64,000 nucleotides of DNA from an uncultured Verrucomicrobiae bacterium (GTDB taxonomy: Bacteria > Verrucomicrobiota > Verrucomicrobiia > Palsa-1439): assembly GCA_963812605.1 (NCBI GenBank), contig CAWEWF010000014.1, positions 672,001-736,000 on the forward strand, written 5' to 3'. The translations under genes were made by a program, and so were the position numbers. Positions 4,430 to 51,202 of this stretch are shown piece by piece; position 1 is the first letter of the stretch, and each line of letters starts with the position of its first letter. Under the pieces are notes generated by a model. The model saw only the letters and a program-made list of their open reading frames with translations, did not search any database and was not told where the DNA came from.

Positions 4430-6064
4430 TCACTTCGTTTTAACAGGCACGGAGATTGGCGCGGGGGCTTCGCGGCTCAACTCTTCGGCGAGTTGGTTGG
4501 CTTTGACGGGATCAATCTTTTTCATCTCGCGGGCGGCTTCGCCGGCTTTGTCGGTCTGGTGAAGCTGCAGGTAGGCCCGAACCAGGCCGCCCCAGGCTTC
4601 GGCGTAGTTGGGTTTCTGCTTGAGCGTTTGCGTGAAAAAAAGAACGGCTTCGTTGTGTTCGCCCTGCTGCTCGGAGACGACGCCGAGATTGAACCACGCG
4701 TCGGGAAGATCGGGCTTGTACTTCAACGCCAGGCGAAAAGCGTTGATCGCTTCCGGGTATTGACCCTGGCTGGCGTACGCCGCGCCGAGCTTAAAATGGG
4801 CGTCGGCATAATCGGGCTTCAGCTCGACCGCCTTTTCGAACGCGCCGACCGCGTCCGCTTGATGCCCCTGCCCCACGTACACGTCGCCCAGCTTGTCCCA
4901 CACCTGGGGATCGCGTGGCGACAGCCTGAGCAATTGCTGGAACACCCCGGCCGCTTCCGGTAGTTTACCCGCCTGGGTGTAGGCCCAGCCGAGGTTGTAC
5001 CACGCATCGATGTAATCCGGCTTCAGCTTGATCGCCTCGTGGAAGGCCGTCGCGGCATCCGGAAAAAAGCCCAGCTTCGCGTAGGCCTCGCCGAGGATAT
5101 ACTGGACCAGCGCGCTGTTGGGATATCGGTCCGCCAGGACCTTGGCGCTCTTGAGCAATTCCGGGTAATTCTTCGCGTCCTCCGCGGCGCCGGCCACCGC
5201 GTAATCCGGATCCGAATACACATACCCCTCCGCGCTACGGCCATATTTTCGCAGCGGTCCGCGCGCGCCAAACGGCCACTGGTCGAACCACCACACCGCG
5301 GCGCTGCACGCCAGCACCGCCAACAAAAGCGCAACGATGCGACCTACCCAGTTTGCCCGGCGAGCCGGCCTCGCCATCTCCTCGCCGCCGGTGGCAAACT
5401 CCGGAATCGCCGTGGGACCCAACTTGACGGGCGCCTCCCAACGCGCCTCCTTGGGAGGCGTGCCCAACAGATTGGTCGGCGTCGGGGTGGCCCTCAGCGC
5501 ATCAGCAAACTCCGGGAACTCCGCGAGTTGTTTCCAGTTCCGGCGCGCCTCGGCCGGCACCCAGGTTTGCTCATTGGCGTAGCCTTGCGAGATCCATTTC
5601 CGCAGTTGCGAGGCATCTACCGGCCCGTAGGTGCGTCCATCGGCGCCCACAATCCGGTATTCCATCTCTTTTGCGGGCGACGGGATCGGTCGCGCTCGCC
5701 CCAGGGGCAACACGGTCTGGCCCGCCGTCTTCCTGGGGTCGGCCACCGCCTGCCCCGGTTCTTCATACCGCATTTCCACCTCGCCAAAGAGCACCACGTC
5801 CCCATGACGCAACTCCGCCCCGGTCAGGCGTTCGCCGTTGACGAAGGTCCCGTTCGTGGAGATCAAGTCGCGAACTTTGTAATGCGTGCCGATGCGAATC
5901 AAGATGGCGTGATGAAGAGAAACCGTGATGTGGTCAAGACAGATGATATTGTCGTCGTCGCGCCCGACGTTGACGCGATCCTGCGTCAATTCGAACACCC
6001 GACCCGACATTGCACCCGAGACAAGATGAAGCTTGCCTATGGCGCTCGTCGCGGAGTCAACCAT
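4430..6064 (-). CDS. FHA + GYF_2-like + TM + TPR-repeat protein
   Basis: FHA motifs VGRDDDN..VSLHHA..DLISTNGTFVNG; YRIVGADGRTYGPV..LRKWI (GYF_2-like); one TM helix; several TPRs (AWYNLG, AHFKLG, AWFNLG). Confidence 0.85.
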   Translation of the reverse strand: MVDSATSAIGKLHLVSGAMSGRVFELTQDRVNVGRDDDNIICLDHITVSLHHAILIRIGTHYKVRDLISTNGTFVNGERLTGAELRHGDVVLFGEVEMRYEEPGQAVADPRKTAGQTVLPLGRARPIPSPAKEMEYRIVGADGRTYGPVDASQLRKWISQGYANEQTWVPAEARRNWKQLAEFPEFADALRATPTPTNLLGTPPKEARWEAPVKLGPTAIPEFATGGEEMARPARRANWVGRIVALLLAVLACSAAVWWFDQWPFGARGPLRKYGRSAEGYVYSDPDYAVAGAAEDAKNYPELLKSAKVLADRYPNSALVQYILGEAYAKLGFFPDAATAFHEAIKLKPDYIDAWYNLGWAYTQAGKLPEAAGVFQQLLRLSPRDPQVWDKLGDVYVGQGHQADAVGAFEKAVELKPDYADAHFKLGAAYASQGQYPEAINAFRLALKYKPDLPDAWFNLGVVSEQQGEHNEAVLFFTQTLKQKPNYAEAWGGLVRAYLQLHQTDKAGEAAREMKKIDPVKANQLAEELSREAPAPISVPVKTK

Positions 6065-6204
6065 TTCGGCCACCCGTTTCCACAAGGCAGTGTGACTTGA
6101 ACACCATGAATTTGCAAGCCGAGAGCACCGCGACTCGCACGAATTCTCAGCATGCCCAAACTAACGTGACATTGCCCGGCAGGTCTGGCAGGATTCCCCG
6201 CCAG

Positions 6205-7767
6205 ATGATGGAAAACAAGCCAGAGAAGCGAATCCTGGGGGTCAGTTGGAGCTTGCTCGCCATCCTCCTTTTGGGGACAACCCTGCGATTTTTGTACCTG
6301 GGACGACAAAGCGTGTGGATTGACGAAGGGTTTTCCTGGCTCGCGGAACAACTGAGTTTTCGTGGCGTAACCCGTCTGTCCTTGAACGATGTCCATCCGC
6401 CGCTCTACTACTATTTCCTGAAAGCCAGCCTGTGGGTTCTCCCCGACACGGCGGTTGGCATGCGGTTCATAAGCGTTCTTTTTTCCATCGCCACCCTGGC
6501 CGTCATGATGACTTTCGTGTACCAGCGCTGGGGACATCGCACCGCCTGCTATGTCGGATTGCTCGCCGCCTTGTCCCCATTCGACATTTATTACGCGCAA
6601 GAGGCGCGGATGTACACGCTGCTCTCCCTTCTGTTTGTGCTGGCCTTCACGGAACTCGTCAGGGCCCTGGAAGGGAAGCGGGCGCACCTCATCGGGTGGG
6701 TTGTCGCGACGACCGGACTGGCGTGGACCCATGCTTATGGTTTGCTGGCGGCTTTCCTGCAAATCGGGTTCCTAGCCGTTTATTGGGCCTGGCAACGCCT
6801 CCGTGGCCGTCCGTTTCCGTTGCAACCAAAGCCTGTGCTGGCGGCGCTGGCCGCTTCGTTACTAGGTGTCGCACCGATCGTGTTTCTTTTCTATAAAGTA
6901 CGCAACCGGTTGGCCGGCAGTGTCTCGATCCCCAAAGCAAGCTGCCTTCTCACTATCGTTCGCTGCTGGGCCACCGGCCCCCTGACCGCCTTCCCCTCTT
7001 TCAGGATCCCCGGGTGGGAACCGGCGGACAAACCCGCTGGGGAATTGGCAAACGCCTTCATGGCGTTGCGGGTCCCGCTGTGGATGTATATCGTGGCAAC
7101 GATAGTCATGGTCGCTTGCGCCGTGCTGGGAGCCCGTCAATTGTGGCGGCGCGACACGTTCCATCGATGGGTTCTGCTTTTTGTCGCCGGGCTCATCACG
7201 CTTCCGCCGATCCTGGTCTTCGCCTACTCGACTCTTTTCAAACATCCTCTTTGGGTTGATCGCGGTTTTCTTCCCAACGCGCACCTTCTCTACCTGCTTG
7301 CGGGCGTCGGGCTGGGCGCAGTCGGATCGCGGGCGCTGCGCGGCATTGCTGCCATAATTATTGGGTTTTCCGTCGTCACGGCTGAGATCTACTATTACAC
7401 CAAATTCGAGAAGACCCCTGCCGCTGCCGCCTGTCAGGCCCTGCCTCCCTCCACACCCCAACGAGTCATTCTGGTGACCCCGTCATGGATCGACTGCGAG
7501 ATCTATTACTATCTCCGCACGGAGTCCGTGCTTTGGGGCGTTCAAGAACCTCCCCGGCAATTAATGCGCATTACCCGAGCTCCCGAAGAGATGCTGCCAA
7601 TCGACGCGATGACGTGCGATGAAGCCAATCTTCAGGCCGTTTCCGATATTTACGCTTTTGGCGACGCCGACACAATCCGAACGGAACGAAAGCAATGGCC
7701 AAGCTGCCTGCTGGCAAAGAAAACCTGGGTGTTCGAACACTCGCGCTGGCTTCCCATCAACGGGTAG
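6205..7767 (+). CDS. Glycosyltransferase family 39 (PMT-like, GT-C), copy A
   Basis: SVWIDEGFS, DVHPPLYY, YYAQEARMY motifs; multiple TM helices. Confidence 0.88.
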   Translation: MMENKPEKRILGVSWSLLAILLLGTTLRFLYLGRQSVWIDEGFSWLAEQLSFRGVTRLSLNDVHPPLYYYFLKASLWVLPDTAVGMRFISVLFSIATLAVMMTFVYQRWGHRTACYVGLLAALSPFDIYYAQEARMYTLLSLLFVLAFTELVRALEGKRAHLIGWVVATTGLAWTHAYGLLAAFLQIGFLAVYWAWQRLRGRPFPLQPKPVLAALAASLLGVAPIVFLFYKVRNRLAGSVSIPKASCLLTIVRCWATGPLTAFPSFRIPGWEPADKPAGELANAFMALRVPLWMYIVATIVMVACAVLGARQLWRRDTFHRWVLLFVAGLITLPPILVFAYSTLFKHPLWVDRGFLPNAHLLYLLAGVGLGAVGSRALRGIAAIIIGFSVVTAEIYYYTKFEKTPAAAACQALPPSTPQRVILVTPSWIDCEIYYYLRTESVLWGVQEPPRQLMRITRAPEEMLPIDAMTCDEANLQAVSDIYAFGDADTIRTERKQWPSCLLAKKTWVFEHSRWLPING

Positions 7768-8140
7768 TTCGTAATCGCAACCGATGACCGCACACGGATC
7801 TAGGTGCACGTATCCGGCGATTCATCCGTCAGCCATGATGCACCTCCCTCGTGCTCGGAGGTGAGCGGGTGCCGGCTCCTCGTACCGTCTCTCGACCTCG
7901 CCAAACAGCAGAACGTCCCGTTGGTGGAAGATCAGGTCGCGACCCTTGTAGTGCGCGCTTGTCTATGGCGCTCGTCGCGGAGTCAACCATTTCGGCTACC
8001 GGATTCCGCAAGGCAGTGTGACCCGAACGCCACGAGTTTGCAACCGAGAGCGGCGCGGCCCGCACAAATTTCCATCGCCCCCCGCTACCCCAAACCAACG
8101 TGACATTATCGGGACGATCTGGCACGATTGGCCCGAACAA

Positions 8141-9640
8141 ATGATGGAGAACAAGCCAGAGAAGCAAATCCTCGGGGTCCGTTGGAGTTTGCTCGCCATC
8201 CTCCTTCTGGGGACAGTCCTGCGATTCCTCTATCTGGGTCGGCAAAGCGTGTGGGTTGATGAAGGGTTTTCATGGCTCGCGCAACAACTGAGCTTCCGTA
8301 GCATAACCCGTCTGTCCTTAAACGATGTTCACCCGCCGCTCTACTACTACTTGCTGAAAGCCAGCCTGTGGGTTCTGCCTGACACGGAGTTTGGCATGCG
8401 GTTCGTGAGCGTTCTTTGCTCCGTCGCCACCCTGGCCGTGATGATGAACTTCGTGTACCGGCGTTGGGGGCATCGCGCCGCCTGCTATGTCGGATTGCTC
8501 GCCGCTTTGTCCCCGTTCGACATTTATTATGCGCAAGAGGCGCGGATGTACACACTGCTCTCCCTGCTGTTTGTGCTGGCCTTTACGGAGCTTGTCAGAG
8601 CGCTGGAAGGGAAGCCGGCGCACCTGATCGGGTGGGCGGCCGCCACGACCGGGCTGGCGTGGACCCACGCGTATGGTTTGCTGGCGGCGTTCCTGCAGAT
8701 CGGGTTTTTCGCGGTCTATTGGACCTGGCAGCGCCTCCGTGGCCGTCCGTTTCCGCTGCAACCAAAACCGGCGCTGGCGGCGCTGGCCGGTGCGTTACTC
8801 GGCGTCGGACCGATTGTGCTTCTTTTCTACATGATTCGCCACCAACACGCCGGCAGTGTCTCGGTTCCCAAGGTGAACTATTTCTTCGCCCTTGTTCGCT
8901 GTTGGGCCACCGGACCGATGTCTGCCTTCCCGGCTTTCGGAATCCCGTGGCGGGCGCACGATGTATCGACGGCGGTCATGGTCGCTTGCGCCGTGCTGGG
9001 AGCCCGTCAACTGTGGCGGCGCGGTGAATTCTATCACTGGGTCCTGTATTTTGCCGTGGCGCTCATCGCGCTTCCGCCGGCCCTGGTCTTCGCCTACTCG
9101 ACCCTTACGAAACATGCCCTCTGGGTCGACCGCGGTTTTCTTCCCAACGCGCACATTCTCTACCTGCTCGCGGGTATCGGGTTGAGCGCTGTCGGATCGC
9201 GTGCGCTTCGTGGGATTGCCGCCGTAGCCATTGGCGTTTCCATCGTCCCAGGCGGGCTCTACTATTACACCAGATTTGAGAAGAGCCTTGCCGCCTCAGC
9301 CTTCCATTCCCTGCCTCCTATCACGCCGCAATGCGTCGTGCTGGTGTGTCCACCATACCGGGACAACGAGGCCTATTACTACCTCCGCGGGCAGACCACG
9401 CTTTGGGCCGTGGAACAGAACTCTCCGTGGCACTTGCTGCACCTCGTGCGGCGTACCGGAGGGGACCACGGGGTAACCGCAGCCACGTGCGACGAAGCGG
9501 AACTCCAGGCCGCTTCCGATATTTACGCTTTTGGCGATGGCGCCGCAATCCGAACGGAACGAAAGCAATGGCCAAGCTGCCTGCTGGCAAAGAAAACCTG
9601 GGTGTTCGAACACTCGCGCTGGCTTCCCATCAACGGGTAG
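8141..9640 (+). CDS. Glycosyltransferase family 39 (PMT-like, GT-C), copy B
   Basis: Tandem paralog of 6205-7767 with the same WxDE/HPPLYY/EARMY motifs and an identical C-terminus. Confidence 0.88.
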   Translation: MMENKPEKQILGVRWSLLAILLLGTVLRFLYLGRQSVWVDEGFSWLAQQLSFRSITRLSLNDVHPPLYYYLLKASLWVLPDTEFGMRFVSVLCSVATLAVMMNFVYRRWGHRAACYVGLLAALSPFDIYYAQEARMYTLLSLLFVLAFTELVRALEGKPAHLIGWAAATTGLAWTHAYGLLAAFLQIGFFAVYWTWQRLRGRPFPLQPKPALAALAGALLGVGPIVLLFYMIRHQHAGSVSVPKVNYFFALVRCWATGPMSAFPAFGIPWRAHDVSTAVMVACAVLGARQLWRRGEFYHWVLYFAVALIALPPALVFAYSTLTKHALWVDRGFLPNAHILYLLAGIGLSAVGSRALRGIAAVAIGVSIVPGGLYYYTRFEKSLAASAFHSLPPITPQCVVLVCPPYRDNEAYYYLRGQTTLWAVEQNSPWHLLHLVRRTGGDHGVTAATCDEAELQAASDIYAFGDGAAIRTERKQWPSCLLAKKTWVFEHSRWLPING

Positions 9641-9676
9641 TTCGTAATCGCAACCGATGACCACGCGCGGATCCGG

Positions 9677-44060: not shown

Positions 44061-44867
44061 ATGGGTATTCAAAAAGTTGTACGGGGTGGGGTATTTCGTG
44101 TTTTTGCCGCAGCGCTCTTTTTGCCGGTAGCGGCTCTTGCCGACACCATCAGCGGAACTGCCGGGGCCGCCTTTCAGAACTGGACAGCCGCCGATCTCAA
44201 TCAAAACGGCAAGCCGTATTGGGACAACACGTCCCTCGACGGAAACGATATGAACGTCGGCTACTTCCTGACCGACGCGCCAACGGCCCCGCTCGCGGGC
44301 GCGCCTGGTGCGCTGCCGTTTTGGGGCAAGTCTTTCAATCCGGTCACCGACAAGGGCGGCACTCCAGATCTGAACTTCTTCTTCCAAAAGAACTCGTCTT
44401 TTAGCATCGCCAGCTTGCAGTTGGAAGTGGCCGCGAACTCGAACATCAACGAATTCGGCTGGTATGATATCACGGCCCCGTCGGTGCTACATACGATCTT
44501 CACCGGCCCCGACGCGGCGCCCACGACCAATTCGTTCACACCCAGCGCCGAATATGGCTTCTGGTTGAAGAGCGCTGACGGCACCTACTATACGCAGTCG
44601 TCGCTGAATCCCAGCGGCGATACGAGTCATCAACACTTCGCGGTCTTCGAGCAATCCTCGACAAACGGAGCCCAGATCTATTGGCTGGGGATTGAAGACT
44701 TCAACCTGTCCGAATTCCATGGCGCCGAAGGCGGCGTAGGCGACTACAATGACATGCTCGTCCGCATCTCTGCCGCGCAGGTCCTGACTGTGCCCGAGCC
44801 GTCAACTGTGGCGTTCGTGCTGAGCGGCGCCTTGCTCATGGTTTGCAGGCAGAAACGCCGCCGGTAG
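44061..44867 (+). CDS. PEP-CTERM surface protein (DUF4114-like), copy A
   Basis: Signal peptide; [15 protein letters not shown]; VPEPST-TM-RQKRRR. Confidence 0.9.
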   Translation: MGIQKVVRGGVFRVFAAALFLPVAALADTISGTAGAAFQNWTAADLNQNGKPYWDNTSLDGNDMNVGYFLTDAPTAPLAGAPGALPFWGKSFNPVTDKGGTPDLNFFFQKNSSFSIASLQLEVAANSNINEFGWYDITAPSVLHTIFTGPDAAPTTNSFTPSAEYGFWLKSADGTYYTQSSLNPSGDTSHQHFAVFEQSSTNGAQIYWLGIEDFNLSEFHGAEGGVGDYNDMLVRISAAQVLTVPEPSTVAFVLSGALLMVCRQKRRR

Positions 44868-44969: not shown

Positions 44970-45740
44970 CTACTTCCCGGCGGCACGCTTTCGATTCGGC
45001 TTGGCGGGGGTTTTCACGGGCTGATGCGGGATTGACAGGGCGTCGACTCCGGAGGCGCGGTAGCGCAGCCAATGAATGGCAAAGCGCGCCAGCTCTTCGC
45101 TCGTTCTCAGGTTCAGCTTCTCCTTGATGTGTTCCCGATGCGACGCGACGGTTTTGGTGCTGAGGTGCAGCCGGCGGGCGATTTCCTGGGTGGCGTAGCC
45201 GTCGCCAATCAACTGGAAAATCTCCAGCTCGCGGTTGCTCAGCCGCTGGGCAAGCGAAGTAATCTTGTCCTGGGACACATTGCCCCCGAGGCGGTTGACA
45301 ATCACATTCGTGACCTTCCCGCTCAAATAAACCTGACCGCGCAGCACCTGGCGGATCGCCTGCAGCAGCACGTCCGTTTCCTCCTGTTTCATTACATAGC
45401 CCTTGGCGCCAGCGTGCAGGCTGCGTTCGGCATAGAGGGTCTCGTCGTGCATGGACAACACGATGGTTGGCAACTGCGGATGGCGCAGCTTGATGTCCTT
45501 GATCAGCTCGATGCCGCTGCCTTCGCCCAGGGCGAGGTCCACCACGGCAATGTGGGGCCGCAACTTCTCAATCGCTGCCAAGGCGGCATTAGCATCCCGT
45601 GCCTGGCCGCAGACCTCCAGATCCGGTTCTCCATTGATGCGCTGCGCCAACCCCTCGCAAACCAGCGGGTGATCATCCACCAACAGAACTCGCTGCCGGA
45701 TGCCGGCGGTTTCTGGCTGCTTGGTCTGGGCGGCTTTCAT
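44970..45740 (-). CDS. NarL/LuxR-family response regulator
   Basis: LLVDDHP, VLSMHDE, LSNRELEIF..STKTVASHR..IKEKL; ATGA overlap with the kinase. Confidence 0.93.
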   Translation of the reverse strand: MKAAQTKQPETAGIRQRVLLVDDHPLVCEGLAQRINGEPDLEVCGQARDANAALAAIEKLRPHIAVVDLALGEGSGIELIKDIKLRHPQLPTIVLSMHDETLYAERSLHAGAKGYVMKQEETDVLLQAIRQVLRGQVYLSGKVTNVIVNRLGGNVSQDKITSLAQRLSNRELEIFQLIGDGYATQEIARRLHLSTKTVASHREHIKEKLNLRTSEELARFAIHWLRYRASGVDALSIPHQPVKTPAKPNRKRAAGK

Positions 45741-47437
45741 TTTGATTTTCGGGCGTGGCCCGGCAAGATGCAACTGATAATCGTTCCGCCGCCGCGGCAA
45801 GACGCGATCTGGAGCTTGGCGCCGATCGCGCGCGCGCGGCAATTCATGTTCTCGAAACCCATTCCCCGGCCCTCCGCCGAATCCCCGGACAACCCGCGGC
45901 CGTTATCGACAATGCTCAACACGGTCCCTCCCCGCCGACGGTGAAGCGAGACGCAGATTTCCGTGGCCTTTCCGTGAATGATGCCATTGTGGATCGCCTC
46001 CTGCGTGATGCGGTAAAGATGAACGGCCACGCCGTGGTCGCGGATGTGGACCCGGTGATTGGATTCAAATCGGCAGGAAATCGAGAACATCGTCCCGATG
46101 GAGGACGCCAACTCATCCAGGGCCGCCACCAGACCCATGGTTCCCAGGTTCACGGGATTAAGCCCGCGGGCGATCTGGCGTGCCTGGCTGGCGGTCGCCC
46201 GGGACAGCGCGGCGATTCGCCCTGCCACGCCCGCTTCGGAGGGGGATTGGGCCGCGAGTTGCCTTTGCAGATTACTGGCGATGTAAGCAATGCCGGCCAA
46301 TTGTTGGCACAAGCCATCATGCAAATCGCGCCCGATGCGCTGTTGTTCGCGTTCGCTGATTTCCAACAATTGCCCCTCGGCGCGGCGCCGCCCCATCACC
46401 TGACCAATTTGGCTGCAGATATCCTTGAGCAGTTGCAGCAAATGTTTGTCGGGAGGCAAGACGCGGCGGCTGAAAACCGTGATGACTCCCAGCACTTCCT
46501 GGTTCAGCCGGATCGGAAAGGCAAAGACCGTCCGCAGTCCATACTTGTCAGCGGCCCGCGTTCGTTGCGGCGCCGGCTGCTGGGAAACGTCCTCAATCCA
46601 GAGCGGCTGGTTGCGCGCCCAAACGGAGCCGGGGATTCCTTCGCCGCGCGCAAAGCCCAGATCCTTCGTGGCGCGCTCCACGCGGGGCAGCCGCTGCGAG
46701 GCGGGATGCCAGGTTTGGGCGCAGCGCAAGACATTTGCTGCCGGATCCACCCTCCAAAGCTCGCCCCAGTCGCAACCCAGGTTCTCACAAATGGCCCGAA
46801 AAATTTTCGGGCCGGCCTCGGACAAAGTATAGGATTCGGCGAGCGCATCCGTGGTGGCCTGTTGCGCGCGCAACCGCTGCTGGGCGCGCCGCATCTCGGT
46901 GACATCCTGGGCCAACAATAGAACGATCCGCCTTCCTCGCAAGGGGATCAGAGCCGCGTCGATTTCGACGTTGATAAAGCCGCCATCCTTACGGCGATGG
47001 CGAAACACGTTGTCGTGCCCGTTGTTGGCAACACCGCGCGGCGAAGATAATCCCTGGCAGTACTTCCTGAAGCCCGCCAGAGATTCCGGTGCGCTCAGGT
47101 CCGTCACTTTCATTTGGTGGAACTCGGACCGCGAATACTTGTAGCGGCGGATGGTTGCCTCATTCACCGCCAGGATGCGCAGGGTCCGGGCATCGCAGAC
47201 AAAGCGCGGTTGTGGCAGCTTCACAAACAGGAGCCGATGCAGTTCCTCCGCTTCCGACAAAGTTTGGAGCGCCTCTTGCGTCCGGGTCAGGGCTTCCGCA
47301 ACCCACTCGAATCCCTGCTTTTCATCCAAACGCTCGACACGTCCCCGATTACGGCCAAAAGGAAGGAGAGACGGAAGCTTTGTTTTCAAAGCCAACGCCG
47401 ACCGCTTCGTATCTACTCGCATCGAGGCGCCCGCCAT
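45737..47437 (-). CDS. Cytoplasmic PAS-GAF HisKA_3 sensor kinase
   Basis: PAS (VNEATIRRY..HRRKDG), GAF (GEGIPGSVW), EQQRIGRDLHDGLCQQL, QEAIHN, DNGRG; no TM segment. Confidence 0.92.
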   Translation of the reverse strand: MAGASMRVDTKRSALALKTKLPSLLPFGRNRGRVERLDEKQGFEWVAEALTRTQEALQTLSEAEELHRLLFVKLPQPRFVCDARTLRILAVNEATIRRYKYSRSEFHQMKVTDLSAPESLAGFRKYCQGLSSPRGVANNGHDNVFRHRRKDGGFINVEIDAALIPLRGRRIVLLLAQDVTEMRRAQQRLRAQQATTDALAESYTLSEAGPKIFRAICENLGCDWGELWRVDPAANVLRCAQTWHPASQRLPRVERATKDLGFARGEGIPGSVWARNQPLWIEDVSQQPAPQRTRAADKYGLRTVFAFPIRLNQEVLGVITVFSRRVLPPDKHLLQLLKDICSQIGQVMGRRRAEGQLLEISEREQQRIGRDLHDGLCQQLAGIAYIASNLQRQLAAQSPSEAGVAGRIAALSRATASQARQIARGLNPVNLGTMGLVAALDELASSIGTMFSISCRFESNHRVHIRDHGVAVHLYRITQEAIHNGIIHGKATEICVSLHRRRGGTVLSIVDNGRGLSGDSAEGRGMGFENMNCRARAIGAKLQIASCRGGGTIISCILPGHARKSK

Positions 47438-47609
47438 CCCTTTTCTCCAAGTACGCCATTAGATTAACCGAGGCTGGGCAGATTGCAAGTCTAATGCGGC
47501 GCCGCTACGACCCTGTATGCCAGTAGTTTGCGGCGTTACGGGGGTGAAAAGAATTTGAGAGCGAAGAGGGGTTTCCCCAGCGGCGGAAAGCACAGCAGCC
47601 GCCGGCGCC

Positions 47610-48011
47610 CTATCGCCTGGGCTTGGAGTGATGATTATCGTCCGGAGAGGATCCCTGCAGATCGCGCAAGGAGACGATTCCCACGAGATGTTTCCGCCGA
47701 TTCAATACGGGCAATCGGCGGAGTTGCCACCGCTGCATCAGATCAGCGGCTTCATTGACATTTTGGCCTTCGCGGCCGCAAATGGCCGGGAACATCATCA
47801 CTTCGCGCACCTGGCTGGTCCGCGGGTCGCAACCCTGGGCCGTCGCCCGCACCGTCAAGTCCCGCGCGGTCAACAGCCCCACGATTTTTCGTCCCTCGCA
47901 AACCGGCAGCATACTGACATTGTAAACACTCATCTTGCGCGCGGCTTCCTGCAACAGCGTATCCGGGGCAACCACCGCGACGCTTCTTTTCATGACGTTT
48001 TTGAGCTGCAT
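47610..48011 (-). CDS. CBS-domain protein
   Basis: LQEAARKM..LPVCEG..VGLLTARDL; RRLPVL..LVGIVSLRDL. Confidence 0.9.
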   Translation of the reverse strand: MQLKNVMKRSVAVVAPDTLLQEAARKMSVYNVSMLPVCEGRKIVGLLTARDLTVRATAQGCDPRTSQVREVMMFPAICGREGQNVNEAADLMQRWQLRRLPVLNRRKHLVGIVSLRDLQGSSPDDNHHSKPRR

Positions 48012-48368
48012 GGCGCTGGTCAGTCGGCTCCGTGAGGAAGAGGACGCAAGGCGCGAGCACGATGATCGCTGGCGATGCGAACAACAACGCGGTCTATATT
48101 GCCACCTGTCATCTTTATCCTACTTGGCGTGCGGCTACTTTACCCGGCTGTTCGGGTTGGCACAATAGAACCCGGACTGTTTTATGGTTCGGAGGATATC
48201 CCATCCCCCCTCAGCCGATCTCCCATGGGAAAACCGTCTTCGCACCGATTGTGGAGACGCGCTCCTTGGCGTAGAAAGAGGAGCGTAAGAACAATCATGA
48301 ACCCAGAGCTACAACGAACCGAAAACCAGAAGGCCGATGAAGGATTGACCGGCCTGGTTGGAAGATTT

Positions 48369-48718
48369 TCAGATGTGGCCGAAACCGGGGCATCAGCGGC
48401 GTTAGTATCGGATCCTCCCCGTGCAATAAACTCGCTTCGTGTTTTGTCGCTTCTCCAAGTGCAAGACACCCTCACCACATTGCACAAACTCGCACCGAGC
48501 TACCGCCAGCTGATGCCCCTCCGGCCCTTTGTTTTTGTTCATGAAGATGAAATTTCGTCAGATGTGGCCGAAACCGGGGCATCAGCGGCGTTAGTATCGG
48601 ATCCTCCCCGTGCAATAAACTCGCTTCGTGTTTTGTCGCTTCTCCAAGTGCAGGACACCCTCACCACATTGCACAAACTCGCACCGAGCTACCGCCAGCT
48701 GATGCCCCTCCGGCCCTT
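48369..48718 (+). repeat. Two 161-bp direct repeats (48369-48529, 48558-48718); candidate rod-shaped ncRNAs
   Basis: 189-bp period with one substitution (A48464/G48653); each copy folds end-to-end (GGGGCATCAGC/GCTGATGCCCC, GTGCAAT/ATTGCAC, GTGTTTTG/CA(A/G)GACAC). Confidence 0.9.
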
Positions 48719-48919
48719 ATGGAATTGAGATCGATGAAACCTTTTCAACAATTCTCGAATGATTCAGCCAAGGTCGGGCAGATTTTGTTTTGGCTGTTCC
48801 CTTACGAGCAGAGCACATTTAATCCCCGCCGGACGCGGACAGATCGTGGCACACGCGGCGCCGCTGACGTTCGCGCATCCCAGGGGGCGCGTTCAAGAAG
48901 CATTTCGAGTCGTCAATCT

Positions 48920-49305
48920 GCAAGCTGAAGCCGGCACCAGGGAGTCAGGGGATCGGCCGGTGGAAGCTGAAGGAACACAGGTTGGGGCTGCCACTAGGGA
49001 AAAAGGGAGTGGCGGCTGCAGCCGAAGAAAGAAGTCGGCAGGCGGAAGCTGGCGGCAGGGAAACAAGGGATCTGCCAGCGGGAGCCGATGGAACGTAGGC
49101 CAAGGCGGCCACCAGGGAAAAAGGGAGTGGCCGCTACGGTCGAAAAAGAAGTCAGTCAAGTCGTCCGGCGAAAGCTGGCGCCAGGGATCGGCGCCGGCTG
49201 AAGCCGAAAAAACTCGGTGGAAACTGCCACTAGGGAAAAAGGGAGTGGCAGTTTCGGCCGACAAAAAGGAAGCCTGTCGAGTCGTCCATCGGCAGGCGGA
49301 GCCTG
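48920..49305 (+). ncRNA. Candidate multi-hairpin RNA with AGGGA loops (CsrB/RsmZ-like architecture)
   Basis: Six hairpins in three ~118-nt units; loop AGGGAAAAAGGGA at 48996, 49114 and 49232; compensatory stem changes between units. Confidence 0.65.
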
Positions 49306-49365
49306 AAGTAACAACGGCTGGACAGATGTCGATTACGTTACAACTGGCATTAAGGGCAATAGGGA

Positions 49366-50298
49366 ATGAAAACAGTTGTGCGGGGCCTCGTCGCCCTGTT
49401 GGTTTTATTTGTTGTCGGTAACGTCGCTCATGGCCTCACCTTCACCGCTACGGGTCAGGGCGACAATACCAATAAGATATTGAGCGCGTCGGTCACGTTT
49501 GCCGTCTCCGACCTGAAGCTCGTTATCACGCTCGCGAATACCGCCACCTTCGACCCGGATGATAGCGCTGACATCCTCACGGGCGTTTTTTTCACGCTGG
49601 TTGGAGACCCGCTGCTCACCCGGACATCGGCGCTGCTCGGTTCCGATACGGCGATCGAAGCCCGTTCGGGAGTGAGCGGTCCCGGTATGAATGTTGGCGG
49701 CCAGTGGGCCTATCGCAATGACTTGACCGACCTGACCAATGAACCGAACGAAGGCCTCGCCATCGCGGGCCTGAAAAACTTTAGCAAGAAACCGTATCGC
49801 TTCTCCGGCCGAAAGCTGGCCTCCCCCAGCGGTGTGCAATACGGGGTCACGACGGACTTCGATAACCTGGGCAACGATAAGGCCAGCCTCAAGCACCAAC
49901 AGCTCATTGAGAACACCGTCGTCTTTACGATGGGCGGACTACCCACGAACTTTACATTCGCGGACATCTCCAACGTCAGTTTCCAGTATGGCACGGGCCC
50001 CTCAGCCGCGGACCTCGCCGGTACGGTCAGCGGTAGTGGCGTCCCCGTGATTCCGGAGCCAAACACCATCGCGCTGGTGGCGGCGGGTTTGCTCGGGGGC
50101 GTTCATCTCAGGGCGGCGACCAAGGGTCGTCGCCCACGTTCGCGCATGCCCCGGGGCGCGCCAAACCAGCCACACTGGCGTCCGGCGGCGCAACCAAGCG
50201 CAAGAGGTTCACCCGGGGAACAATCTTTTGGATGGTCCATCGGTCAACAGAATGTAAAGGAGAATTCGCTTTCATGCGAAAAGGTCGATTCGGCATGA
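49366..50298 (+). CDS. PEP-CTERM (exosortase-dependent) surface protein; 3' end uncertain
   Basis: Signal peptide; LVITLANT..DILTGVFF..NVSFQYGT; IPEPNTIALVAAGLLG. A G-run at ~50095 may be a frameshift (LLGAFISGRRPR fits the motif better). Confidence 0.85.
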   Translation: MKTVVRGLVALLVLFVVGNVAHGLTFTATGQGDNTNKILSASVTFAVSDLKLVITLANTATFDPDDSADILTGVFFTLVGDPLLTRTSALLGSDTAIEARSGVSGPGMNVGGQWAYRNDLTDLTNEPNEGLAIAGLKNFSKKPYRFSGRKLASPSGVQYGVTTDFDNLGNDKASLKHQQLIENTVVFTMGGLPTNFTFADISNVSFQYGTGPSAADLAGTVSGSGVPVIPEPNTIALVAAGLLGGVHLRAATKGRRPRSRMPRGAPNQPHWRPAAQPSARGSPGEQSFGWSIGQQNVKENSLSCEKVDSA

Positions 50299-50404
50299 GA
50301 CGCCAGCGCACGAAGCATCGGCATTAGGATCGCAGCAACATGACAGAGAGGAAGATGGCGGATACAGGGACGCGCGCCATGAGGTTAACAAATGGGGACG
50401 GGTT

Positions 50405-51202
50405 ATGGGTATTAAACGGGTCATATGGGGAAGCGCCCTTGCCGTATCGCTCATTGTGCCGGTAGCAGCTTTTGCGGATACAATCAGCGGAACGGCCGGT
50501 GCCGGGTTTCAGAGTTGGACAGCCGCCAATCTCAATGAAAACGGCAAGCCGTATTGGGACAATCCGTCCCTCGACGGCAGCAATATGAATGTTGGGTTTT
50601 TTCTGACCGATGCGCCCACGGCCCCGCTGCCGGGCGCGCCTGGTGCGCTGCCGTTTTGGGGCAATACTTTCAGTTCGGGCGCCGACAGCGGCGGGACGCC
50701 AGATCTGAATTTTACTTTTCAAACGAACTCGGCCTTCGATGTCGCCAGCATGATCCTGGAAGTTGCCGCCAACTCCAATATCAACGAGTTCGGCTGGTAT
50801 AACATCACGGATCCGTCGGCGCTGCATCCGATCTTCGCCGGCGCCGACTCGCCGCCCGCTACTGACACGTTCGCACCGAACGGCCAGTATGGTTTCTACT
50901 TGAAAGGCAGCAACGGCACCTTCTACACGCAGTCCTCGCTGAACCCCGCCGGCGACACCTCGCACCAGCACTTCACCGTTTTCGAGCAATCCCCGACAAA
51001 GGGAGCCGAAGTTTATTGGCTGGGGATCGAAGACCTCACGGTGCACGATCAATTTGGCGGGGAAGGTGGCGCGGGTGACTACAATGACATGCTGGTCAAG
51101 ATATCGGGCGAGGCTGCGCCGGCTGTGCCGGAGCCCTCGACCGTGATGCTGGTGCTGAGCGGCGCCTTGCTCATGCTCTGCTCGCAGAAACGCCGCCGAT
51201 AG
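50405..51202 (+). CDS. PEP-CTERM surface protein (DUF4114-like), copy B
   Basis: Close paralog of 44061-44867; VPEPST-TM-QKRRR. Confidence 0.9.

Follow-up and report, generated by a model that had tools for sequence, protein, structure and literature searches.

A murF-embedded RNA rod apparently re-used in the leader of an accessory two-gene module in uncultured Verrucomicrobiota

A 64,000-nt stretch of the genome of an uncultured Verrucomicrobiae bacterium (contig CAWEWF010000014.1, positions 672,001 to 736,000; hereafter the window) contains a tandem pair of strongly folded units. They were detected at 48369-48718 by Tandem Repeats Finder (period of 189, 1.9 copies, 99% matches), and a repeat search returned them as two 161-nt copies that are 99% alike. 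Both units lie within one open reading frame (ORF), here called ORF1, which is followed by a second small one, ORF2, and further downstream by an array of AGGGA hairpins and a gene for a surface protein (Table 1). The first-pass annotation of the sequence had described the units as rod-shaped non-coding RNAs (ncRNAs). According to our best reading, they are copies of an RNA rod embedded in murF, the gene for UDP-MurNAc-tripeptide--D-Ala-D-Ala ligase, which seem to have been re-used in the probably translated leader of an accessory two-gene module; the function proposed below is inferred from sequence.

Table 1. Features of the module locus and its surroundings, with positions in the window
Feature	Position	Strand	Description
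Upstream neighbours	45737-48011	-	CBS-pair protein; PAS/GAF histidine kinase with HisKA_3 domain; divergent to the module
ORF1	48297-48728	+	143 codons in the MurF frame, holds both rods; truncated, decayed paralogue of the 5' part of murF
Rod copy 1	48369-48529	+	Repeat unit; paired rod at 48377-48525; family-wide conserved core at about 48387-48519, corresponding to MurF codons ~58-108
Spacer between copies	48530-48557	+	In frame; remnant of the murF 'DGHEF' stretch; holds a non-conserved T-rich run
Rod copy 2	48558-48718	+	Differs from copy 1 at one base, G48653 versus A48464
ORF2	48734-48928	+	64 aa in the window (61-64 aa in the set); starts 5 nt after the ORF1 stop
AGGGA/GGA hairpin array	48930-49310	+	Repeat families D7 and D8; located after ORF2 and before the XDD4 gene
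XDD4 family exosortase-dependent (PEP-CTERM) surface protein gene	49366-50298	+	NF045504, E 1.1e-47

On the plus strand, copy 1 forms a single rod with exactly the helices that the first-pass annotation had listed. Its minimum free energy (MFE) is -69 kcal/mol against -41.4 +/- 3.8 in dinucleotide shuffles (z of -7.19), and none from 200 shuffles folded as well; the minus strand folds too (-74.6 kcal/mol, z of -5.28). The pseudo-two-fold symmetry claimed for the internal loops is real, with AAACTCGC at 48428-48435 and 48486-48493, opposite CCTCCCC (48414-48420) and CCTCACC (48470-48476). These loops had also been proposed to expose CCUCC seeds similar to an anti-Shine-Dalgarno sequence, which does not extend to the family: CCUCC is limited to some extragenic copies, and the murF copies have CCUACCC. 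The only base that differs between the window copies turns a U-A pair of the apical helix into U.G, as had been noted. In a fold of the whole region (48270-48790), the rods of both copies form independently of each other and the ORF2 start is not clearly sequestered. The T-tract reported after copy 1 is present (48527-48540) and lies within the open frame; it is missing from the homologous spacers of other loci. A scan for promoters and terminators found no terminator at this tract and one weak promoter-like site, at 48725-48752. The tandem duplication has support outside the window: a contig of DNA run X1, which may be the window's own sample, spans 48369-48587 (all of copy 1 plus the spacer and the first 30 nt of copy 2), and tandem rod pairs are also found on six metagenome contigs.

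Searching the window's own genome (G000), we found a third copy of the unit (G000:C4:151170-151315), 87% identical over 146 nt. It sits in a 470-codon ORF containing the Mur_ligase N, M and C domains, which is murF. In the tblastn comparison, the window units have 70 to 73% amino acid identity with MurF residues 54-106. They are stop-free in the MurF frame, and the 189-nt period corresponds to 63 codons. ORF1 itself matches the NCBIfam murF model only weakly (TIGR01143, E 1.6e-6), with no match to Mur_ligase_M or Mur_ligase_C; a functional Mur ligase gene was rejected, as its codons hold only remnants of the N domain. In the extragenic loci of related genomes, both sides of the rod still bear traces of MurF, namely of its 'DGHEF' and P-loop 'GKTT' stretches, and the GKTT remnant persists in the spacers of the 237-246 nt units at two loci (L012 and L013). 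By an estimate made by eye from the alignment, these flanks have around 65-78% nucleotide identity to murF, against around 90% for the rod. Given the identity, the frame and the remnants of MurF flanks, we consider the units a partial, decayed duplicate of the 5' part of murF in which only the rod was kept, and their derivation from murF practically certain. No homology could be established between the murE-murF junction and the start of ORF1 with the sequence before it, the alignment being clear only from around murF codon 38 onward. Stand-alone ncRNA genes are not what we find at this locus, as the units are a murF coding fragment whose reading frame has stayed open in all relatives.

The other identities that were considered for the units gave no match. 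A dispersed repeat, of the miniature inverted-repeat transposable element (MITE) or repetitive extragenic palindromic (REP) kind, was rejected: only three copies exist in 4.17 Mb, the tandem pair and the one in murF. A covariance model of the rod recovered the same three copies in this genome and otherwise only the antisense of such loci. Within 47000-50500, no 6S RNA match (RF00013) was obtained at E <= 10, and the same Rfam search returned four chance-level matches only (E of at least 4.7, none at gathering score). The canonical 6S RNA of this genome is located elsewhere (G000:C14:419151-419328, 89.9 bits).

The segment inside murF folds into the same rod (MFE of -70.7 kcal/mol, z of -6.92). 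By BLAST, the rod core was found in 35 from 36 other genomes of the family and in none from 24 genomes that belong to other families within the order or class. In the full set of one family of uncultured Verrucomicrobiota, it is present in 44 from 45 genomes, and in nearly all of them the match lies within a full-length murF (tblastn). The sole exception, G019, has a weak and partial MurF-like match (31% identity, residues 93-455). A scan for the exact pattern over one genome per prokaryotic species gave 46 matches, all of them in metagenome-assembled genomes of Verrucomicrobiota. The equivalent murF stretch (residues 56-110) of 17 genomes from outside the family folds no better than its shuffles (z from -1.51 to +1.68). 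As the rod is absent or unfolded outside the family, we regard it as a family innovation overlaid on an ordinary MurF sequence.

Some murF copies are irregular in the assemblies. In G007 the gene is split over contigs C8 and C31 (L016 and L053), both ending within the rod. This break pattern is the one expected from an unassembled second rod copy, so that extragenic copies may occur in more genomes than counted. In G009 (L026) and G010 (L022), murF is frameshifted, which could be an assembly error or real; in G009 a single nucleotide is inserted at the site of the frameshift, at alignment column 150 within the 3' arm of the rod.

Selection on the rod was examined in a codon alignment of 32 murF genes, from which L022 and L026 had been dropped for their frameshifts. 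The identity of synonymous codons reaches 0.83-0.94 in codon windows 61-105, against 0.42-0.65 elsewhere in murF. Synonymous differences per site (pS) amount to 0.154 within the rod, compared with 0.600 for the remaining gene, and the rod value is the lower one in all 496 genome pairs, which are related and not independent tests. At the protein level, the rod stretch is also the most conserved part of MurF, above the P-loop. An overlapping gene is not supported as the source of this constraint: across the 43 copies, no frame other than that of MurF is always open, and an antisense frame that is open in 24 from 34 murF copies is open in none of the 9 extragenic ones.

RNAalifold recovers the rod from the alignment, in which the internal loops are as invariant as the stems. 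For the covariation count, a structure of 44 pairs was written from the MFE folds, and 93.7% of its cells are paired. Changes on both sides occur in 12 from 44 pairs, against 4.3 +/- 1.4 in shuffles (0 from 500 reach 12) and 1-5 in slid controls, so the fold proposed from the window alone is conserved among homologs. The clearest case involves the outer helix, where CAUC/GAUG becomes CAAG/CUUG, CAGG/CCUG or CAAC/GUUG across 120 nt, one arm having switched its serine codon from TCN to AGC and the opposite arm having undergone Met/Leu changes. The rod is very probably under selection at the level of the nucleic acid. Both synonymous constraint and compensatory pairing, as expected for a structured element embedded in a coding sequence, are observed, and the element may act as sense RNA.

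Outside murF, the rod was found in the window genome and in G004, G006, G012 and G022, the last with two loci that stand in different contexts; G005 has a separate copy. Eight extragenic copies form one clade apart from all murF copies, with support of 100/100. Because of this separation, we consider them an old lineage that was not homogenised by recent gene conversion. The module is common to two genera. The G005 copy (L046, G005:C2, 1491-1651) split off from murF independently, and its long branch falls among the murF copies of genus g1. This copy stands in a different context, is devoid of ORF2 and has kept the outer helix via a double change from CG to UA.

Extragenic rods show pS close to the non-synonymous differences per site (pN), both within 0.03-0.15. 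For the same pairs, the N-terminal flank of ORF1 has 0.21-0.65 synonymous and 0.17-0.46 non-synonymous differences per site, with a ratio of non-synonymous to synonymous rates (dN/dS) of 0.27-1.32. The rod changes around 5 times more slowly than these flanks. Similar pS and pN in a slowly changing rod indicate selection on the nucleic acid rather than on the protein, with a nearly neutral peptide.

In spite of the drifting peptide, the frame is preserved. The MurF frame is open across the rod in 27 from 27 metagenome contigs with the extragenic type. Six tandem contigs have spacings of 189, 228, 237, 240, 240 and 246 nt, all multiples of 3, and a seventh contig has two separate modules 918 nt apart. 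The window ORF1 itself has an in-frame deletion of 21 codons relative to its relatives. Its ATG is preceded by GAGGAG at 48278-48283, both the ATG and its context being conserved in relatives, and the TGA stop occupies 48726-48728. Within the set, the leader ORF varies from 105 to 230 codons and contains one or two rods of -60 to -70 kcal/mol. A conserved start, a kept frame, a drifting peptide and a short gap between stop and next start are the features of translated leader ORFs, and we regard ORF1 as putatively translated.

Two diverged rod-like copies were recovered only by the covariance model: L161 (G031:C99, 1501-1654; 39.5 bits) and L162 (G020:C11, 1501-1661; 31.7 bits). Each is located a few hundred nucleotides downstream of a gene for a LuxR-type regulator, and the outer helix of L161 was kept through compensatory changes. 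These copies suggest a repeated exaptation of this piece of murF as RNA.

ORF2 encodes a lineage-restricted small protein and was found only beside extragenic rods. The proteins share the invariant motif G.I.FWLFPYEQ.TF and an arginine-rich tail, and their dN/dS of 0.15-0.49 indicates purifying selection. A match to this motif was obtained in 19 from 27 contigs; counted from the ORF1 stop, ORF2 starts at 5 nt in 14 of these contigs, at -4 nt in 3 and at 10 nt in 2. From the 45 genomes, only the 5 that bear the module have matches to the ORF2 profile, plus one weak match with a stop. Among 5.8 billion proteins there are 12 relatives, all unnamed. No Pfam or NCBIfam match was found for ORF2, and PADLOC at E <= 0.1 gave no match for ORF1, ORF2 or the long ORF2 form of L043, so that no known defence or toxin-antitoxin protein is indicated. 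In this last locus, the ORF2 N-terminus heads a 289-aa ORF with a hydrophobic segment, while a metagenome protein (P0013) has the rod-encoded peptide and ORF2 in one reading frame. The AlphaFold2 model of ORF2 was uninformative, with a mean predicted local distance difference test (pLDDT) of 57.5, a predicted template modelling score (pTM) of 0.23 and one helix at residues 9-21.

The AGGGA array had been suggested as a possible part of one ncRNA module with the rods. This is contradicted by ORF2, a protein-coding gene under purifying selection that lies between them, and by the absence of the array from the second module type, so that rods and array are not one obligatory ncRNA. It accompanies the genus-g1 type only: at least 4 AGGGA are found within 1 kb after the module in 14 from 20 metagenome loci with at least 700 nt downstream, against 0-1 in 6 loci of the genus-g6 type. 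The array was not tied to CsrA, because the CsrA family (PF02599) was not found in this 90%-complete genome. Upstream, the neighbourhood with the CBS gene is common to the genus-g1 loci L013 and L014 and is not seen at the G022 loci. A pair of 300-nt repeats (44104-44403 and 50439-50738), 82% alike and 6.3 kb apart, flanks the locus. At 6031-9673, segments 79-93% alike with a spacing of around 1.9 kb look like tandem paralogous genes.

The locus is present in soil sequencing runs. Contigs from two soil metatranscriptome runs cover 48302-48527, 48332-48418, 48371-48529 and 48578-48705 at a depth of 3-4, and the array (48937-49308) at depths of 19.2 and 38.7, which is 5-10 times that of the rods. 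They do not cover 47900-48300 or 48710-48925, the latter corresponding to ORF2, and DNA run X1 covers parts of both; these gaps are not evidence of processing. We take the contigs only as presence in RNA libraries, and the contig of the DNA run as support for the duplication.

The best explanation for these observations overall, to which we assign a probability of roughly 0.55, is that the rod evolved within murF, was selected at the nucleotide level and was re-used in the ORF1-ORF2 module as a cis-acting RNA operator. A structured element of around 133-150 nt would have arisen within the murF coding sequence and would have been copied, together with its coding context, to the accessory module. 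There the ORF1 peptide would drift, with the start, the frame and the rod or rods being kept. In the predicted architecture, an outer helix of 23 bp closes the rod, and a helix of 8 bp in its middle has an internal loop (RAACUCGC opposite CCUMMCC) on either side. A putative trans-acting factor, either a dimeric or two-site RNA-binding protein or RNase III, might bind or cut this structure, and both candidates fit because the two-fold pseudo-symmetric loops are as invariant as the stems. The factor would gate the passage of ribosomes and/or the life of the mRNA. In murF, the operator would tune MurF and the downstream genes of the cell-wall cluster; in the module, ORF2 would come under the same control by translational coupling, and one or two rods would set the dose. 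A cis-acting operator is favoured because murF and ORF1 alike have the rod at a comparable distance from the start of a frame that is translated, putatively so in ORF1. The specific mechanism, an operator gating ribosome passage and/or mRNA stability with ORF2 coupled to it, is tentative, and we would place it somewhat short of even odds.

The rods could also be free-standing small RNAs (sRNAs) that are processed from the transcript and act in trans, for example as a decoy or sponge titrating the factor of the murF rod; such a decoy would be the bacterial equivalent of competing RNAs that stem from pseudogenes. We find this doubtful. Within ORF1 nothing but the rod is strongly conserved, strains differ in whether they have one rod or two, the RNA-library contigs cover the rods and not the flanking stretches, and L161 retains a hairpin without an open frame, all of which would suit a decoy. 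A mere decoy, however, would need neither the kept frame, nor the start codon, nor the 5-nt junction with ORF2, and neither the T-tract nor the coverage gaps point to a processed end. An unlikely combination of both ideas is that the rod is the operator of a putative post-transcriptional regulator of peptidoglycan synthesis and the module a dosage-tunable competing RNA with one or two rods, which would titrate this regulator from the murF mRNA and report via ORF2. If true, it would be a bacterial analogue, maintained by selection, of the competing endogenous RNAs derived from pseudogenes. A quite improbable alternative places the function in the DNA (a cruciform or a long palindromic protein site) or in an antisense RNA, and not in the sense mRNA. 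It could account for the minus strand folding as well or better in absolute energy, and for the 29-44 bits that the covariance model gives to antisense murF copies. However, full-length copies score 140-197 bits in sense, 38 from 40 rows retain a G.U pair at columns 87/98, and the sense strand is necessarily transcribed in murF and carries the frame of ORF1 and its coupling to ORF2. For these reasons the sense RNA is favoured as the active form.

Two further explanations seem weaker than these. One supposes that ORF1 acts as a protein, a mimic or decoy of the MurF N domain, e.g. the antidote to ORF2 in an arrangement resembling a toxin-antitoxin pair, the fold being inherited from murF. The tight coupling of two small genes, their patchy occurrence (5 from 45 genomes, and the differing contexts in G022) and the always open frame agree with it. 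We nevertheless judge it very improbable: pN is close to pS in the extragenic rod, the dN/dS of the N-terminal flank is 0.27-1.32, in-frame deletions have taken out much of the N-domain remnant in the window, and ORF2 matches nothing in PADLOC, Pfam or NCBIfam. The other supposes a decaying pseudogene fragment without function, recently duplicated, that inherited its hairpin passively. ORF1 is indeed a decayed piece of murF with nearly neutral flanks, and a single base difference between the window copies is compatible with a recent duplication. This explanation becomes hardly credible considering that the rod evolves much more slowly than the flanks in the same lineages, that the module occurs in two genera as an old clade, that compensatory changes are seen in extragenic copies, that all spacings are multiples of 3 and that ORF2 is always attached.

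Several observations weigh against the operator explanation. Pairs are often broken with no compensation (columns 26/151 in 8 from 40 rows, 27/149 in 14 and 80/104 in 35), and the effective sequence number is 1.18, meaning that few events, in related genomes, underlie the covariation. The single difference between the window copies preserves pairing on the plus strand as the first-pass annotation had stated, but the same argument extended to the family does not settle the strand: 86 cells have G.U that pairs only in sense and 55 have A.C that pairs only in antisense. The mean MFE is also lower in antisense (-69.0 against -63.4 kcal/mol). L161, with its very stable hairpin (-87.6 kcal/mol), has the MurF frame interrupted by a stop, which indicates that translation is not always kept. 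The ORF2 motif is unmatched in 8 from 27 contigs, of which 3 end too early and 5 are unexplained or missed by the strict pattern. Several metagenome contigs represent the same organisms as genome loci and are not independent of them. Neither strand nor transcript ends nor level can be read from the RNA-library contigs, and DNA carry-over is possible. Moreover, both the trans factor of the operator and its binding or cleavage of the rod are putative.

At the level of listings and abstracts, the literature searched describes neither an RNA element embedded in murF nor a module of this kind. Structured RNA elements in bacterial coding sequences are rarely documented, and one in an essential cell-wall gene, with stems and loops both more conserved than the P-loop of the enzyme, is unusual. 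We suggest a route by which regulation could spread: a duplicated piece of a housekeeping gene loses its meaning as protein, keeps the RNA element, the start and the frame, and becomes wired to a new small gene. The rod may also offer a handle on the post-transcriptional control of murF and the division and cell wall (dcw) cluster in abundant uncultured Verrucomicrobiota of soil and peat. A caution follows for annotation, as intergenic ncRNA candidates can be exapted gene fragments.

Among known systems, 6S RNA resembles the units in being a rod of around 160-190 nt with internal loops, while the rods described here lie inside an ORF or murF and match no Rfam family. RNase III operator hairpins are known from the rnc and pnp leaders and from phage sites. 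The outer helix of around 23 bp, interrupted by internal loops, falls in the same size class of substrates; the differences are the location within a coding sequence and loops as conserved as the stems, and cleavage of the rod is putative. In type III toxin-antitoxin systems, ToxI repeats accompany ToxN. Like ToxIN, the module has structured RNA repeats in tandem immediately before a small gene, and its distribution is patchy. It differs in its units of 189-246 nt, placed in frame within an ORF, in the small size of ORF2 (around 61 aa) and in having no terminator between the repeats and the gene. Membership in this type was rejected, the PADLOC search having given no toxin family for any of the proteins.

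RNA decoys or sponges, and competing RNAs derived from pseudogenes, are also known. The likeness is that of a non-functional partial gene copy that keeps the regulatory element of the parent mRNA, while in the present case the titrated factor would be hypothetical and the extragenic copies stay in an open frame coupled to ORF2. Translated leader ORFs and translational coupling are found in bacterial operons, e.g. in attenuation leaders. ORF1 agrees with them in the conserved start and frame, the drifting peptide and the stop 5 nt before the next start, and differs in being derived from a housekeeping gene, in its length of 105-230 codons and in the one or two strong rods that it contains. Alternative terminator and antiterminator structures were not found for this leader in the terminator scan and the whole-region fold. 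Finally, coding-embedded cis-acting RNA elements recognised by excess synonymous constraint are described mainly from RNA viruses in excerpts of two reports (FRESCo, PMC4376164; PMC4227794). In concept, the rod stands nearest to these elements and to translated leaders. As far as these excerpts go, the viral elements and the rod are alike in the local collapse of synonymous variation and in a conserved, covarying structure. The rod differs from them in that its host is an essential bacterial cell-wall gene, in its 133-150 nt with conserved internal loops, and in having been copied with part of murF to a new locus.

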